From: Escherichia coli
GTDB lineage: Bacteria > Pseudomonadota > Gammaproteobacteria > Enterobacterales > Enterobacteriaceae
Assembly (NCBI RefSeq): GCF_017348835.2
Contig: NZ_CP071375.1
Direction: 5' to 3' (one strand)
Length of the DNA: 64,000 bases
Part shown: positions 16,742 through 19,564 of the stretch, one piece after another
How the letters are laid out: every line of letters begins with the position of its first letter
Numbering within the stretch: the first letter of the stretch is position 1
Notes under the pieces: generated by a model
What the model was told of the DNA's origin: nothing
Seen by the model: the letters and a program-made list of their open reading frames with translations, nothing else
Databases searched by the model: none
Made by a program: the position numbers and the translations under genes

Positions 16742-17731
16742 TTACTTACCGCCTAAACCTTTTTTCTCCAGTTCTTCTTTAAAGTTGTCACGCGTGATCA
16801 GCACCACGTCGGTAACTTCGGTGAATTTGGTCGGTTCAACACCTTTTGCTACCCAGTTGTAAAGCATTTCGCTGGACTTATAACCATGTACGTCCGGGCT
16901 TGGCAACAGGGAACCGTAGAAGCCGGTTGCCTGTGCCTTAGACAGTTCGCTTACGGCATCCACACCGTTAATACCGATACCGATGATATCGGCCGCTTTA
17001 AAGCCCTGACCTTCCGTCGCGCGTACGCCGCCCAGCACGGTGCTGTCGTTCATACCGACGATCAGCCAATGTTTAACTTCCGGATGTTGAACCAGCATTG
17101 AGTTGGCAGCGTCAAATGCCCCGGGGATGTCGTTAGATTTGGTAGGTACCTGATAAATTTGTTTTTCCGGGAATCCTGCAGCTTTCAGCGCATCCATAGA
17201 ACCCGTAGTACGGCGACGAGCCGTATCCAGTTCGTTGGAGGTAATCGCCATCACCGCGCTTTCTTTGACATCCCAGCCACGTTTCTGCATCTCTTTATAC
17301 AGTTCCTGGCCCTGACGTTCGCCAATTTTGGTCGCCGCCATCATCACCAGAGGAACGGTATCCATTGGCTTACCTTTGGCGTTAACAAACTGGTCATCCA
17401 CGGCAATGACTTTCATATCGTAGCCACGCGCTTTCGCGACGATGGCAGAGCCGAGTTTCGGGTCCGGAGTACAAATAACGAAACCTTTTGCGCCACTGGC
17501 GGCCAGGCTATCGATCGCGTTCAATGTTTTTTCGCCATCCGGCACGGCAATCTTAATAACCTCAAACCCTAAATCCTTCCCGGCTTTATCGGCAAACTTC
17601 CATTCGGTCTGGAACCACGGCTCTTCCGGTTGCTTCACCAGGAAACCGAGCTTCAGGTTCTCCGCCATAGCGGATTGTGACATAACGGCTGCCAGACCAA
17701 TGGCTGCCAGGGCTTTAGTAAATTTGTGCAT
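16742..17731 (-). CDS. araF: L-arabinose-binding periplasmic protein AraF
   Basis: ORF track 16742..17782 is extended; known start MHKFTKALAAIGLAAVMSQSAMA (signal peptide). Confidence 0.95.
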   Translation of the reverse strand: MHKFTKALAAIGLAAVMSQSAMAENLKLGFLVKQPEEPWFQTEWKFADKAGKDLGFEVIKIAVPDGEKTLNAIDSLAASGAKGFVICTPDPKLGSAIVAKARGYDMKVIAVDDQFVNAKGKPMDTVPLVMMAATKIGERQGQELYKEMQKRGWDVKESAVMAITSNELDTARRRTTGSMDALKAAGFPEKQIYQVPTKSNDIPGAFDAANSMLVQHPEVKHWLIVGMNDSTVLGGVRATEGQGFKAADIIGIGINGVDAVSELSKAQATGFYGSLLPSPDVHGYKSSEMLYNWVAKGVEPTKFTEVTDVVLITRDNFKEELEKKGLGGK

Positions 17732-18527
17732 GGTTCTCTCCAGCTTTAGTGTCGTTTTGTGTAGGGCAAAAACGAATGACATTCGTTAAATTAATCGGAA
17801 AACAAAGCATTACCTTTTAACTAAAAGATAAGTGACTGTGTTGACATAGTTTTAGCGAGAAATTAATTCTCCATAGGAGAGCAATATCACATCGCAGAAT
17901 TACAGTGAGAACGTGCATAAATTTAGCGGGAAAAGACATAAAGGAAAGCCAATTTGTCAGACAAATTGTCGAATGCACAGCAGATTAATCCATAAGATTA
18001 GCCTGGAAATCCTTGTTGTCTTTGGTACCCATGCGGGATGTCTTCTTTTTAACCAGTCAATAGGCCGCATTACCTGGCGTTGAGTTTTTGAAATGGTGTA
18101 ATAACCACAACTCAAAGATGTGGAAAATGCGCGCCATTCATTTTGCCATTAATTATCACTGTGCTCATTAATTAACAGAACACGTATAATGAGAGCCATC
18201 TCGCAAAAATGAAAAAACGTTTTATAAAATCATCACTTCATCATGAATTCAAATTCATCGATTAATATCAACAAGATACAAAAAGCACTATCATTAAAAT
18301 TCATTGCAGTTACATTGATTTCATCAATGAAATGTAAAAATATATAAACTTGATGATTTAAGCATTTTCTTATACCCGTTCAGACGTTATTCTTATTTCA
18401 GATCATCGTCAGAATTGACTCCACGATCACATTTCGGACCGGCAGAAAGGAATTATTCTGCAAACAGTAATTATGGTGTTTTGATTTATCTTGCACCTCT
18501 CCACTTCTGGATATAAGGATATTAGGT

Positions 18528-19031
18528 ATGGCAACCGCTGGAATGCTTCTCAAACTCAACTCTCAAATGAACCGCGAGTTTTACGCATCCAATCTCTACC
18601 TTCACCTGAGTAACTGGTGTTCTGAACAGAGTCTGAACGGCACCGCCACTTTCCTTCGCGCCCAGGCACAGAGTAATGTGACCCAAATGATGCGCATGTT
18701 TAACTTTATGAAGAGTGTCGGCGCTACCCCCATCGTTAAAGCCATTGATGTTCCCGGTGAAAAACTGAACTCTCTGGAAGAACTGTTCCAAAAAACGATG
18801 GAAGAATACGAGCAACGTTCTAGTACGTTGGCACAGTTAGCCGATGAAGCGAAAGAACTGAATGATGATTCAACCGTCAATTTCCTGCGCGATCTGGAAA
18901 AAGAACAGCAGCATGATGGCCTGTTGCTGCAAACCATTCTTGATGAAGTGCGCAGTGCGAAACTTGCGGGTATGTGCCCTGTGCAGACCGACCAACATGT
19001 TCTGAATGTCGTGTCGCATCAGCTGCATTGA
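18528..19031 (+). CDS. ftnB: Ferritin-like protein FtnB
   Basis: 167-aa ORF matching FtnB (YecI). Confidence 0.94.
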
Positions 19032-19073
19032 TCATACATCGGCGCTAATGCATTGCGCCGATGAAGTTTTTGA

Positions 19074-19112
19074 GAAACCGCTGCCTCATCTTTTTGAAGC
19101 AGCGGTTTTTTT
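19074..19112. terminator. Terminator between convergent ftnB and yecJ
   Basis: Hairpin gaaaccgctgc...gcagcggtttc followed by a T-run; a second inverted repeat catcggcgc/gcgccgatg lies at 19036..19063. Confidence 0.75.
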
Positions 19113-19362
19113 AATGGGATTCGCCCTGTGGGGTAAACTTGAGTTCAATCAGCGCGATGGCTTTTTGGATTGCCCGCATGGTGACCGGGTCTGCGGCGGC
19201 GGGATGGTTAGTAAAGTCGATGTTCTTCAGCTGGCTGGACATTTTTTCGCGAACTTCAACGGGCGCGATTACATCCAGAACGTCGAGAATTTGTTTGATA
19301 ACCAACTGGCAAGCAACCACATCAGAAACCAGTTCCTGATCGGCATTCAGCGGCTGGGACAT
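19111..19362 (-). CDS. yecJ: DUF2766 protein YecJ
   Basis: 83-aa ORF matching YecJ. Confidence 0.9.
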
Positions 19363-19446
19363 CGTAAACTCCTGATAGCATTTTGAAAGCCGTTATAGTA
19401 GCGGCTTCACATCTTCAGCGATAGTCACATCCACCGTCATCAGGAC

Positions 19447-19477
19447 ACAAAAAAACCTGCCGAAGCAGGTTTTTTTG
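19447..19477 (-). terminator. Rho-independent terminator of azuC (IsrB transcript)
   Basis: A-run, acctgc-cgaa-gcaggt hairpin, T-run; abuts the azuC stop. Confidence 0.8.
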
Positions 19478-19564
19478 TTATCGGAACATATTGCCTGGCG
19501 GTACGTCTTTGAACGTCTTGCAATAGTTATTGAACATACTTTTCAGGATCTTGCGCAGTTTCAT
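19478..19564 (-). CDS. azuC: Small membrane-associated protein AzuC (28 aa; mRNA also known as sRNA IsrB)
   Basis: Manual minus-strand translation gives MKLRKILKSMFNNYCKTFKDVPPGNMFR*. Below the ORF-track size cutoff. Confidence 0.9.
   Translation of the reverse strand: MKLRKILKSMFNNYCKTFKDVPPGNMFR

Follow-up and report, generated by a model that had tools for sequence, protein, structure and literature searches.

The araF–ftnB spacer of Escherichia coli probably consists of two divergent, known control regions and weakly constrained AT-rich DNA between them

Why are the divergent genes araF and ftnB of Escherichia coli separated by about 800 bp, a distance that seems long for promoters alone? 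A prediction made from the sequence of contig NZ_CP071375.1 had described this interval as AT-rich, with palindromes and a possible tiny open reading frame (ORF); it had expected AraC and CRP to control araFGH from here and had left the ftnB-proximal half unexplained. We analysed the interval within a 64,000-nucleotide stretch of this contig (the window). The reading that we favour, with a probability of about 80%, is that two divergent and already characterised control regions are joined by weakly constrained AT-rich DNA. The spacer as a whole is ordinary and largely already known. The remark about its length was a fair one; that length goes back to the loss, in Escherichia, of a DJ-1-family gene that its relatives kept between araF and ftnB, not to a hidden gene. 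The importance of this result is small beyond a tidier annotation.

The locus and its two control regions

The spacer is bounded by the following genes.

16742..17731, minus strand: araF, from the ORF list, collinear with MG1655 b1901 (left boundary)
18528..19031, plus strand: ftnB coding sequence for a ferritin-like protein, Pfam Ferritin PF00210, E = 5.5e-27 (right boundary)

The gap runs from 17732 to 18527, between the araF ATG at 17731 (minus strand) and the ftnB ATG at 18528 (plus strand). It measures 796 bp at 34.9% GC, in line with the roughly 800 bp of AT-rich DNA in the original prediction, and GC content falls to a minimum of 25.5% at 18200-18399 as against about 50% in the flanking genes. 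The spacer is present as a single copy in 5412 of 5426 complete E. coli genomes, and with a median of one place per genome it does not behave as a repetitive element. Window positions equal NC_000913.3 positions minus 1968397, and on this scale the spacer differs from that of MG1655 at seven of its 796 positions, the sole araF-side difference being at 17942. Among six E. coli strains 32 alignment columns vary, the majority of them within 17942-18306. A full-text literature search for araF together with ftnB found the spacer discussed nowhere.

General scans of the spacer returned little. An Rfam scan of 17000-19500 (E up to 1) gave no match in the spacer except a chance hit to mir-33 (E = 0.91), a consensus promoter scan listed zero promoters, and neither Fur boxes (up to six mismatches) nor IHF consensus sites were found. 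The predicted folds were no better than those of shuffled sequences for the araF leader (z = +0.15), for the ftnB leader (z = -0.18) or for 18195-18400 (z = -0.90). A terminator scan reported a terminator-like hairpin on the minus strand within the araF core promoter, which we judged spurious.

On the araF side, positions 17732-18017 constitute the known araFGH control region, with a leader of about 111 nt, a weak -10 element, a CRP site beside RNA polymerase, and two AraC sites further upstream.

17732..17842, minus strand: predicted araF 5' leader, about 111 nt, with its start near 17842 placed from geometry
17849..17891, minus strand: araFGH core promoter, with -10-like TAAAAC (17854..17849) and CRP site TGTGATATTGCTCTCC (17876..17891)
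17903..17940, plus strand: AraC site araFG1, with half-sites 17903-17919 and 17924-17940, 21 bp apart
17978..18015, plus strand: AraC site araFG2, with half-sites 17978-17994 and 17999-18015, CAGCAGATTAATCCATA-AGAT-TAGCCTGGAAATCCTTG

AraC sites were defined as TAGC-N7-TCCATA half-sites arranged as direct repeats 21 bp apart, and two such pairs were found, at 17903/17924 and 17978/17999; their names, araFG1 and araFG2, are those that we take the literature to use. The half-sites of araFG1 lie on the same strand with three and two mismatches and are conserved across genera. Those of araFG2 carry one and two mismatches in the same 21-bp phasing, with 88-95% identity among Escherichia species; araFG2 is itself conserved across genera, and cross-genus homology stops directly after it. 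The CRP site has two mismatches, lies 32 bp from the centre of the -10 element, between an AraC site and RNA polymerase, and is nearly invariant across genera. The promoter has a weak -10 and no -35. We place the araF transcription start near 17842, because the centre of the CRP site (17883.5) would then lie 41.5 bp upstream and the -10-like TAAAAC falls at 17854..17849. The block 17843-17900 shows 95-98% identity among Escherichia species, with 91% invariant columns, and is nearly invariant across genera; the leader block shows 86-92% identity among Escherichia species and can be aligned across seven genera. Altogether the araF-side control region is conserved in 14 genomes from seven genera. 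Thus the expectation of AraC/CRP control was borne out, by four correctly phased AraC half-sites and a CRP site that are conserved across genera.

Transcription of araFGH from the mapped start depends on arabinose and cAMP. The architecture reportedly worked out for this promoter matches the one found here, and the K-12 araFGH promoter region is the same locus with the same AraC/CRP layout, nothing substantive being different.

On the other side, the ftnB control region takes up positions from about 18330 to 18527. It contains a CpxR box, a sigmaE-type promoter candidate that overlaps the sigma70 promoter, and a leader of 128 nt.

18334..18348, plus strand: CpxR box GTAAAAATATATAAA, one mismatch to GTAAA-N5-GTAAA, centre at about -59 from A18400
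18345..18372, plus strand: sigmaE-type promoter candidate AAACTT-N16-TCTTA, from a motif scan
18388..18400, plus strand: ftnB sigma70 promoter, -10 TATTCT (18388-18393), start A18400
18400..18527, plus strand: ftnB 5' leader, CsrA-repressed, with GGA at 18436, 18449, 18509 and 18517

The ftnB-proximal half is thus better accounted for than had been supposed: its last 200 bp or so correspond to the promoter and the CsrA-regulated leader that have been published for ftnB (PMC6686035), marked by a sigma70 ChIP-seq peak, and the perfect FNR consensus upstream was already catalogued as unoccupied and overlapping with H-NS (Myers 2013, Table S6). The start of ftnB is placed at 18400 because the published work used a 127-nt UTR probe and a fusion spanning +1 to +152, that is, 128 nt plus eight codons (PMC6686035). 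The sigma70 peak at U00096.2 position 1984820 (Myers 2013, PMC3688515) converts to about 18399 in the window and so coincides with this start. The published ftnB (yecI) leader fits exactly in its length of 127-128 nt, its four GGA motifs and the GGA at the Shine-Dalgarno sequence (PMC6686035). The GGA at 18517 lies within AAGGAT before the ATG, overlapping the Shine-Dalgarno. Pourciau et al. 2019 (PMC6686035) demonstrated CsrA binding by EMSA, observed repression of translation in vitro and footprinted three sites, one of them over the Shine-Dalgarno; CsrA represses ftnB translation by binding leader GGA motifs that include the Shine-Dalgarno.

ftnB is a member of the Cpx regulon (PMC9600279; Yamamoto & Ishihama 2006 as cited in a passage of PMC6686035), and the CpxR box is conserved across genera as ATGTAAAAAnnTATAAAC, with a 2-bp AT deletion at 18340-18341 in some E. 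coli strains. A sigmaE-dependent ftnB (yecI) promoter has been published (Rhodius 2006, PMC1312014, cited also in a passage of PMC6686035). The candidate TAAACTT-N16-TCTTA has three mismatches to the GGAACTT-N15/16-TCNAA-type motif; its TCTTA is the same in all 14 genomes. Like TCTTA, both the CpxR box and the ftnB leader are conserved across genera, the leader with 93-99% identity among Escherichia species. Transcription of ftnB has been reported to start at two sites some 66 bp apart (PMC13273102), and A18466, which is preceded by a second TATTCT at 18454-18459, is a candidate for the second. Excerpts of the Term-seq tables (Adams 2021) list RNA 3' ends at MG1655 1986856 and 1986899, which correspond to 18459 and 18502 inside the ftnB leader.

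The AT-rich middle segment

Between these two control regions lies DNA of a different character.

18018..18323, no strand assigned: Escherichia-specific, AT-rich, fast-evolving filler, in the place of the DJ-1-family gene of other genera

BLAST of this segment found no homology outside Escherichia. Its left part is 88% identical to the closest Escherichia lineage and 32-41% identical to five more distant ones, and its right part 80% and 58-64% identical, respectively. In Citrobacter, Salmonella, Leclercia and other genera a DJ-1-family gene, which Escherichia lacks, stands between araF and ftnB. Indeed, in 27 of the 35 loci where araF and ftnB are neighbours a full-length or frameshifted DJ-1-family gene lies just upstream of ftnB, and fragments of such a gene were found in two more. 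The araF–ftnB spacer measures about 1100-1435 bp outside Escherichia, or 543-877 bp once the coding sequence is subtracted, as compared with 796 bp here. The gene of the related genera encodes a DJ-1-family glyoxalase of 185 aa and has an upstream region of its own in the interval between araF and ftnB. It was lost in Escherichia; what remains is AT-rich, bound by H-NS in K-12 and evolving in a nearly neutral manner.

A tblastn search found no DJ-1-family relic in the Escherichia spacer, and an nhmmer search with a profile of the DJ-1 region also found nothing (E = 3.9), whereas truncated Citrobacter controls scored from 1e-20 to 1e-206. The absence of a trace fits a deletion that retained the old upstream region and a replacement by unrelated DNA equally well. 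An origin of the segment from phage or plasmid DNA was considered and rejected, since a phage search gave no matches and the only 'plasmid' matches were Mb-sized E. coli records.

The spacer resembles other H-NS-bound AT-rich gene-loss scars of enterobacteria in its low GC content (25.5% at the minimum), its H-NS enrichment and its near-neutral divergence, and likewise in occupying a position where sister genera carry a gene. At two Citrobacter loci and one Leclercia locus the decay is still in progress, whereas the E. coli spacer holds no recognisable pseudogene fragment. We regard it as a clear gene-loss scar turned into H-NS-bound filler, one that hides a perfect FNR site. Short islands are nonetheless conserved among Escherichia species within the middle segment, namely ATAATG, TTAATTATCAC, TCATTAATTAA and CATCATCATGA, and therefore the segment may retain some function, for example protein binding or a cryptic promoter.

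Candidate elements within the middle segment

Four candidate elements were identified in the filler.

18185..18190, plus strand: perfect TATAAT, candidate cryptic promoter with no good -35 (best 3/6)
18207..18227, no strand assigned: KdgR-operator-like box AAATGAAAAAACGTTTTATAA, 15/20 against AAATGAAACAnTGTTTCATTT, containing the ATG of the ORF
18209..18265, plus strand: 18-codon ORF (MKKRFIKSSLHHEFKFID), judged spurious, with no Shine-Dalgarno and a start codon that is not kept
18258..18271, no strand assigned: FNR consensus site, TCGATTAATATCAA here and a perfect TTGATTAATATCAA in MG1655

The tiny ORF had been placed correctly, as 57 nt encoding MKKRFIKSSLHHEFKFID, and the lack of an obvious Shine-Dalgarno was confirmed: it is preceded by gagccatctcgcaaaaATG, and the 15 nt before the ATG at 18209 hold no Shine-Dalgarno-like purine run. 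The suggestion that it might be a gene did not survive comparison with other genomes. None of the six other Escherichia lineages has the ATG, its place being taken by ATA, CTG, CTA or AAT, and in O157:H7 a change from TCA to TAA turns codon 8 into a stop. Non-synonymous changes (S9L, L10P) are present in other strains, and identity over the ORF is 71% to the closest lineage and 47-60% to the five more distant ones, among the lowest in the spacer. We conclude that the ORF is almost certainly a chance frame and not a gene; 14 longer ORFs (20-56 aa) occur in the same spacer.

A small protein peculiar to E. coli, whose translation would do without a Shine-Dalgarno and whose transcript might start from the TATAAT at 18185-18190, would be compatible with a frame that is intact from ATG to TAA in five of six E. 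coli strains, with the position of the perfect hexamer 19 nt upstream of the ATG, and with a start region that is A-rich and unstructured; the peptide also begins with MKK, a beginning shared by many small membrane proteins. Such a protein is nevertheless extremely improbable given the loss of the start codon, the interrupted frame, the poor conservation and the abundance of longer chance frames, and the region is moreover bound by H-NS. The ORF is annotated in neither MG1655 nor PGAP genomes. It does not appear by name, by peptide or by MG1655 coordinates 19862xx-19867xx in one supplementary file of the ribosome-profiling sORF study of Stringer et al., and it was not found in the supplements on Enterobacteriaceae intergenic smORFs. 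Of the two observations that the original prediction had set against itself, one, a lack of sequence conservation beyond the promoters, is what we found; as to the other, a limited search of datasets turned up no transcription or translation signal.

The same hexamer raises the possibility that the middle segment gives rise to a regulatory RNA or to a far-upstream ftnB transcript, silenced by H-NS and induced by FNR or upon displacement of H-NS. The TATAAT was not listed by the consensus scan because its best -35 candidate matches at only three of six positions. ATAATG is kept in six of seven Escherichia sequences (the seventh has ACAATG), and this island and its neighbours are conserved amid surroundings whose identity to the five more distant lineages is no higher than 58-64%. 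In K-12 the hexamer is followed, 68 bp downstream, by a perfect FNR consensus, ftnB has been published as dependent on low oxygen and FNR, and H-NS is known as a silencer of promoters in AT-rich DNA. We consider such a transcript very unlikely, however: no promoter passed the consensus scan, Rfam gave no match, and the fold of 18195-18400 did not exceed that of shuffles. Excerpts of the Term-seq tables list no RNA 3' ends between MG1655 1985131 and 1986856, and the only sigma70 ChIP peak reported in the spacer is that of the known ftnB start. In addition, with its site downstream of a promoter FNR would act as a repressor, not as an activator.

The FNR motif itself is best understood as part of the filler, a far-upstream consensus site that H-NS would keep unoccupied. 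Its copy in the window has one mismatch to TTGAT-N4-ATCAA, owing to a T to C change at 18259 relative to K-12. Myers 2013 (Table S6, PMC3688515) listed an araF/ftnB FNR motif at U00096.2 position 1984679 with a score of 15.49, no FNR ChIP-seq peak and overlapping H-NS ChIP-chip enrichment, so that in these published data 18258-18271 is not occupied by FNR in vivo. The locus is accordingly one of the high-scoring entries on that list of silent, NAP-occluded FNR motifs, the window copy differing by its one mismatch. FNR binding far upstream of ftnB is ascribed to Partridge 2007 in a passage of PMC3212961.

The last of these elements, the KdgR-like box, came from comparison with the KdgR operator consensus AAATGAAACAnTGTTTCATTT (PMC5559549), and its assignment to KdgR is by similarity to a consensus that is itself AT-rich. 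No other sequence in the 64-kb window scores 15 or higher, and among shuffled versions of the middle segment 1% reach 15; for comparison, the upstream regions of E. coli kdgK and kdgT score 15 and 17. The ATG of the ORF is part of the operator consensus (AA-ATG-AAA). In Citrobacter, Salmonella, Lelliottia, Leclercia and Silvania, KdgR-like boxes scoring 13-18/20, most of them at least 15, lie between the DJ-1-family gene and ftnB, and MAFFT placed those of Citrobacter and Salmonella in the same columns as the E. coli box. These similarities suggest that the box at 18207-18227 belongs to KdgR and is orthologous to those of the other genera. Compared with KdgR operators proper, the E. coli box equals that of kdgK and comes near that of kdgT in score, as against up to 18/20 in the other genera, but it has lost the C at consensus positions 9 and 17, its centre of symmetry is shifted, and it has decayed in other Escherichia lineages. 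It may thus be a decaying KdgR-type operator that formerly belonged to the neighbourhood of the lost DJ-1 gene, its presumed target, and that persists in the middle segment. A Cra or PurR site (AAACGTTT core) was rejected at this position, as only 5/8 positions per half match by eye. A KdgR-type box is predicted beside the DJ-1-family glyoxalase gene in Citrobacter, Salmonella and Enterobacter-group genera. If KdgR still binds in E. coli, pectin/KDG catabolism would be linked to the expression of ftnB or araFGH.

Palindromes and the conserved dyad

Inverted repeats with arms of 7 nt or more and loops no longer than 5 nt are commoner in the spacer than expected by chance: it contains eight nested matches at five distinct places, as against an average of 0.58 in 500 dinucleotide-preserving shuffles, none of which reached eight. 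Three of the repeats are considered here.

17771..17787, no strand assigned: palindrome 1, AACGAATG-A-CATTCGTT, within the predicted araF leader
17950..17968, no strand assigned: perfect palindrome of 19 bp, CAATTTGTCAGACAAATTG, with the core TTGTC-N-GACAA, halfway between araFG1 and araFG2
18313..18329, no strand assigned: palindrome 2, CATTGAT-TTC-ATCAATG, next to the CpxR box on its upstream side

Palindromes 1 and 2 had been read correctly as AACGAATGACATTCGTT and CATTGATTTCATCAATG but misplaced, at 17761..17777 and 18332..18348, respectively. Palindrome 1 does fall inside the predicted araF leader, as had been stated. It is identical in six E. coli strains; other Escherichia species have no palindrome at this place (AACTAAGAACTTTCGTT is one example), and the patch is variable across genera. 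It forms no hairpin of its own in the minimum-free-energy fold, and its right arm overlaps a stretch that agrees with the H-NS motif TCGATAAATT at all positions but one. Palindrome 2 keeps its right arm, ATCAATG, in six of seven Escherichia sequences, with ACCAATG in E. albertii; its left arm varies, and the palindrome is not conserved in other genera. Palindrome 2 contains FNR-like half-sites and was rejected as an FNR site because their spacing is 1 bp too short.

The longest inverted repeat, at 17950..17968, had been missed. The dyad TTGTCAGACAA is part of it. Of 14 genomes from seven genera, 12 have kept the core of the dyad, and its flanks vary. This core fits the generic GntR/FadR-type operator shape TnGTnnnACnA. 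To our knowledge, neither the 19-bp dyad nor the leader palindrome is part of the published description of the K-12 araFGH promoter. The motif is not enriched elsewhere in the 64-kb window.

These palindromes could be operators, the dyad for a GntR/FadR-type factor that modulates AraC at araFGH and palindrome 2 for a factor that cooperates with CpxR at ftnB. The excess of inverted repeats over shuffles, the retention of the dyad core with varying flanks exactly midway between the two AraC sites, and the nearly constant right arm of palindrome 2 speak for this proposal, which is tentative and on the whole unlikely. No binder was found, AT-rich DNA readily yields short palindromes, and neither palindrome 1 nor the left arm of palindrome 2 is conserved. 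Only in E. coli is the 19-bp palindrome complete, and even there its outer bases vary. Deletion of the region of the upstream AraC site reportedly changes araFGH expression only slightly. That the dyad is an operator giving araFGH a GntR/FadR-type third input, and that the KdgR-like box is still bound by KdgR in E. coli, we likewise hold to be rather doubtful predictions. If true, the dyad would add a third input to the operon of the high-affinity arabinose transporter. The conserved dyad between the araFGH AraC sites is a modest by-product of this analysis that would be cheap to test.

Control regions at both ends of the spacer

In this E. coli window, the 796-bp spacer (17732-18527) is bordered by two genes.

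17731, minus strand: araF, 5′ side, left border
18528, plus strand: ftnB start, right border

MG1655 is collinear with the window (window coordinate = NC_000913.3 position minus 1968397), its spacer differs at 7 of 796 positions, and 5412 of 5426 complete E. coli genomes carry a single copy of the spacer. GC content is 34.9% overall and 25.5% at 18200-18399, compared to ~50% in the flanking genes. No feature is annotated within the spacer in MG1655 or in PGAP-annotated genomes, no Rfam family matched it, scanning returned no consensus promoter, and its segments gave no RNA fold signal. Short inverted repeats are enriched: eight nested matches occur at five places, whereas 500 dinucleotide-preserving shuffles give an expectation of 0.58. 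The original prediction had described an unusually long spacer containing two palindromes and an 18-codon ORF. All three sequences are present, the ORF at 18209-18265 as given, while the palindromes lie at 17771-17787 and 18313-18329 rather than at 17761-17777 and 18332-18348. The unusual length is also real, but it reflects lineage-specific gene loss between two control regions that were already known; the finding is real as a description, yet ordinary.

On the araF side (17732-18017), motif scans recovered the expected AraC and CRP control elements, with all four AraC half-sites on the same strand.

17903/17924: AraC half-site pair, motif scan, 21-bp phasing
17978/17999: AraC half-site pair, motif scan, 21-bp phasing
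17876-17891: CRP site, motif scan
17854..17849, minus strand: -10-like TAAAAC, 32 bp from the CRP centre
17950-17968: perfect 19-bp palindrome CAATTTGTCAGACAAATTG, the longest inverted repeat of the spacer

The spacing of TAAAAC to the CRP site is that of a site centred at -41.5, which would place the araF transcription start near 17842 and give a leader of ~111 nt. The layout agrees with the published araFGH promoter, where araFG1 is required, araFG2 can be dispensed with, CRP adjoins the polymerase, the -10 is weak and a -35 is lacking. This block could be aligned in 14 genomes from seven genera. The CRP site, the -10 and the four AraC half-sites hardly vary among them, and cross-genus homology ends directly after the last AraC half-site. 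Among Escherichia species the araF core promoter is 95-98% identical. The leader palindrome (17771-17787) occupies a variable patch: it is the same in six E. coli strains and is not a palindrome in the other Escherichia species, and the araF leader folds no better than its shuffles. The 19-bp palindrome, absent from the original prediction, lies halfway from one AraC site to the other and keeps its core TTGTC-N-GACAA in 12 of the 14 genomes, its flanks being variable; it is shaped like a GntR/FadR-type operator and is a candidate for one.

The ftnB-proximal half (about 18330-18527) had been called unexplained. It in fact holds a published CsrA-bound leader, Cpx- and sigmaE-dependent promoters, and a sigma70 ChIP-seq peak.

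18334-18348: CpxR box GTAAAAATATATAAA, motif scan, upstream of the ftnB -10
18345-18372: sigmaE-type motif AAACTT-N16-TCTTA, motif scan, upstream of the ftnB -10
18388-18393: ftnB -10, TATTCT

The CpxR box fits the published Cpx-dependent ftnB promoter, and the sigmaE-type motif probably the sigmaE-dependent one. Other genera retain TCTTA as well as the CpxR box and the leader (leader identity 93-99% among Escherichia species). Pourciau et al. 2019 (PMC6686035) probed with a 127-nt ftnB 5′ UTR that carries four GGA motifs, found three CsrA footprints, one covering the Shine-Dalgarno sequence, and showed repression in vitro with a +1 to +152 fusion. In the window the GGA motifs lie at 18436, 18449, 18509 and 18517, and with a start at A18400, position +152 falls after exactly eight codons. 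The sigma70 peak (U00096.2 1984820, window ~18399) and the other evidence on this side agree with that start and with the known regulation. A 2026 study (PMC13273102) reports two ftnB start sites ~66 bp apart; a second TATTCT precedes A18466, a candidate for the second start. Excerpts of the Term-seq table (Adams 2021) list plus-strand 3′ ends in the leader at 18459 and 18502 (MG1655 1986856 and 1986899), score the former as not Rho-dependent, and hold none from the araF terminator to the ftnB leader. Position 18459 lies inside a GCAGAA...TTCTGC hairpin bearing a CsrA GGA motif.

The second palindrome lies directly beside the CpxR box. Six of seven Escherichia sequences share its right arm, which has one substitution in E. 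albertii, and its left arm is variable. A 2-bp AT deletion (18340-18341) in the CpxR box spacer, found in two of six E. coli strains (L042 and L043), would change the half-site spacing. In strain Ecol_542 (L044:2036-3201), IS1 and an adjoining truncated otsA replace araFGH and the spacer to ~18325, so that only the last ~203 bp (CpxR box, promoters and leader) precede ftnB.

The middle segment and a DJ-1-family gene

Of the loci retrieved, 35 have araF and ftnB as neighbours. Outside Escherichia the gap measures ~1100-1435 bp and encloses a 185-aa gene of the DJ-1/PfpI family (PF01965), whose product scores just over the cut-off of TIGR01383 (DJ-1 family glyoxalase III); without this coding sequence 543-877 bp remain, compared to 796 bp in E. 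coli.

L013:2954-3511 (Citrobacter), minus strand: DJ-1-family gene, at the equivalent place in 26 other loci

The gene was found in Citrobacter, Salmonella, Leclercia, Lelliottia, Enterobacter and Silvania and is missing from all Escherichia loci. It is frameshifted in one Leclercia (L036) and part-deleted in two Citrobacter loci (L014, L038). Given its presence in six other genera and these decayed copies, loss in the Escherichia lineage is the parsimonious reading. Neither tblastn nor profile nhmmer found a relic in Escherichia, although the same nhmmer search readily detects the truncated Citrobacter copies. In a Salmonella enterica subsp. diarizonae locus (L009:2047-2827), araF and araG are absent, a C-terminal araH fragment (141-aa ORF) adjoins otsB, and a recognisable remnant of the araF promoter and leader (blastn matches of 76-80% to parts of window 17732-17964) lies beside the DJ-1-family gene.

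The middle segment (18018-18323) evolves fast. E. coli matches the closest Escherichia lineage (L002) at 88% in the left part and 80% in the right, and five more distant lineages at 32-41% and 58-64%, respectively. Among six E. coli strains there are 32 variable columns, mostly from 17942 to 18306, and a few short Escherichia-conserved islands surround a perfect TATAAT (18185-18190). No phage or true plasmid relatives of the segment were found.

18258-18271: FNR consensus, one T-to-C change relative to K-12

Myers et al. 2013 (PMC3688515) noted the perfect consensus TTGATTAATATCAA in the K-12 spacer, which has no FNR ChIP-seq peak and overlaps H-NS ChIP-chip enrichment. An earlier report, as cited in PMC3212961, had FNR bound unusually far upstream of ftnB. 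At 18259 this strain and three of six E. coli compared read TCGAT where K-12 reads TTGAT, the consensus being otherwise perfect. We judge the middle segment to be H-NS-bound filler containing a probable relic operator and an FNR site that is silent.

The 18-codon ORF and a KdgR-like box

The 18-codon ORF is judged spurious. The spacer contains 14 longer ORFs, all chance; no Shine-Dalgarno sequence precedes its ATG, as originally observed; and each of the six other Escherichia lineages has ATA, CTG, CTA or AAT in place of the ATG. Codon 8 is TAA in O157:H7, other strains carry S9L and L10P, and one searchable sORF supplement has no entry by name, peptide or coordinates. The T-to-C change at 18259 is silent in this chance ORF.

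18207-18227: KdgR-like palindromic box AAATGAAAAAACGTTTTATAA, containing the ORF ATG, 15 of 20 positions matching the KdgR consensus AAATGAAACAnTGTTTCATTT
L033:3475-3495, L030:3481-3501 and L009:3657-3677 (loci from other genomes): KdgR-like box near the DJ-1-family gene

Nowhere else in the 64-kb window does a match reach 15, a score attained by 1% of middle-segment shuffles; upstream of E. coli kdgK and kdgT the scores are 15 and 17. Nearly all other genera have a box with 13-18 of 20 matches, mostly 15 or higher, in the spacer between the DJ-1-family gene and ftnB. Those of the Enterobacter group are ~21 bp away from the start codon of the DJ-1-family gene, those of Citrobacter and Salmonella ~340 bp before ftnB (321 bp in E. 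coli), and the latter two align to the E. coli box in MAFFT. We therefore read the ORF start as probably part of a decaying operator rather than a translation signal, as consensus similarity and position suggest.

At 19415-19481, close to the azuC/AzuR locus and downstream of yecJ, several weak sub-threshold Rfam matches cluster (Thr_leader; OrzO-P; rsmX; STnc370, whose 33 bits fall short of the gathering score of 54), probably reflecting a terminator hairpin. In Citrobacter, a second palindromic element, CCGAAAT.ACGA..T..TCATTCGG (L013:3540-3575, with equivalents in L010 and L008), lies upstream of the DJ-1-family gene, ~37 bp from its start, and is distinct from the KdgR-like box.
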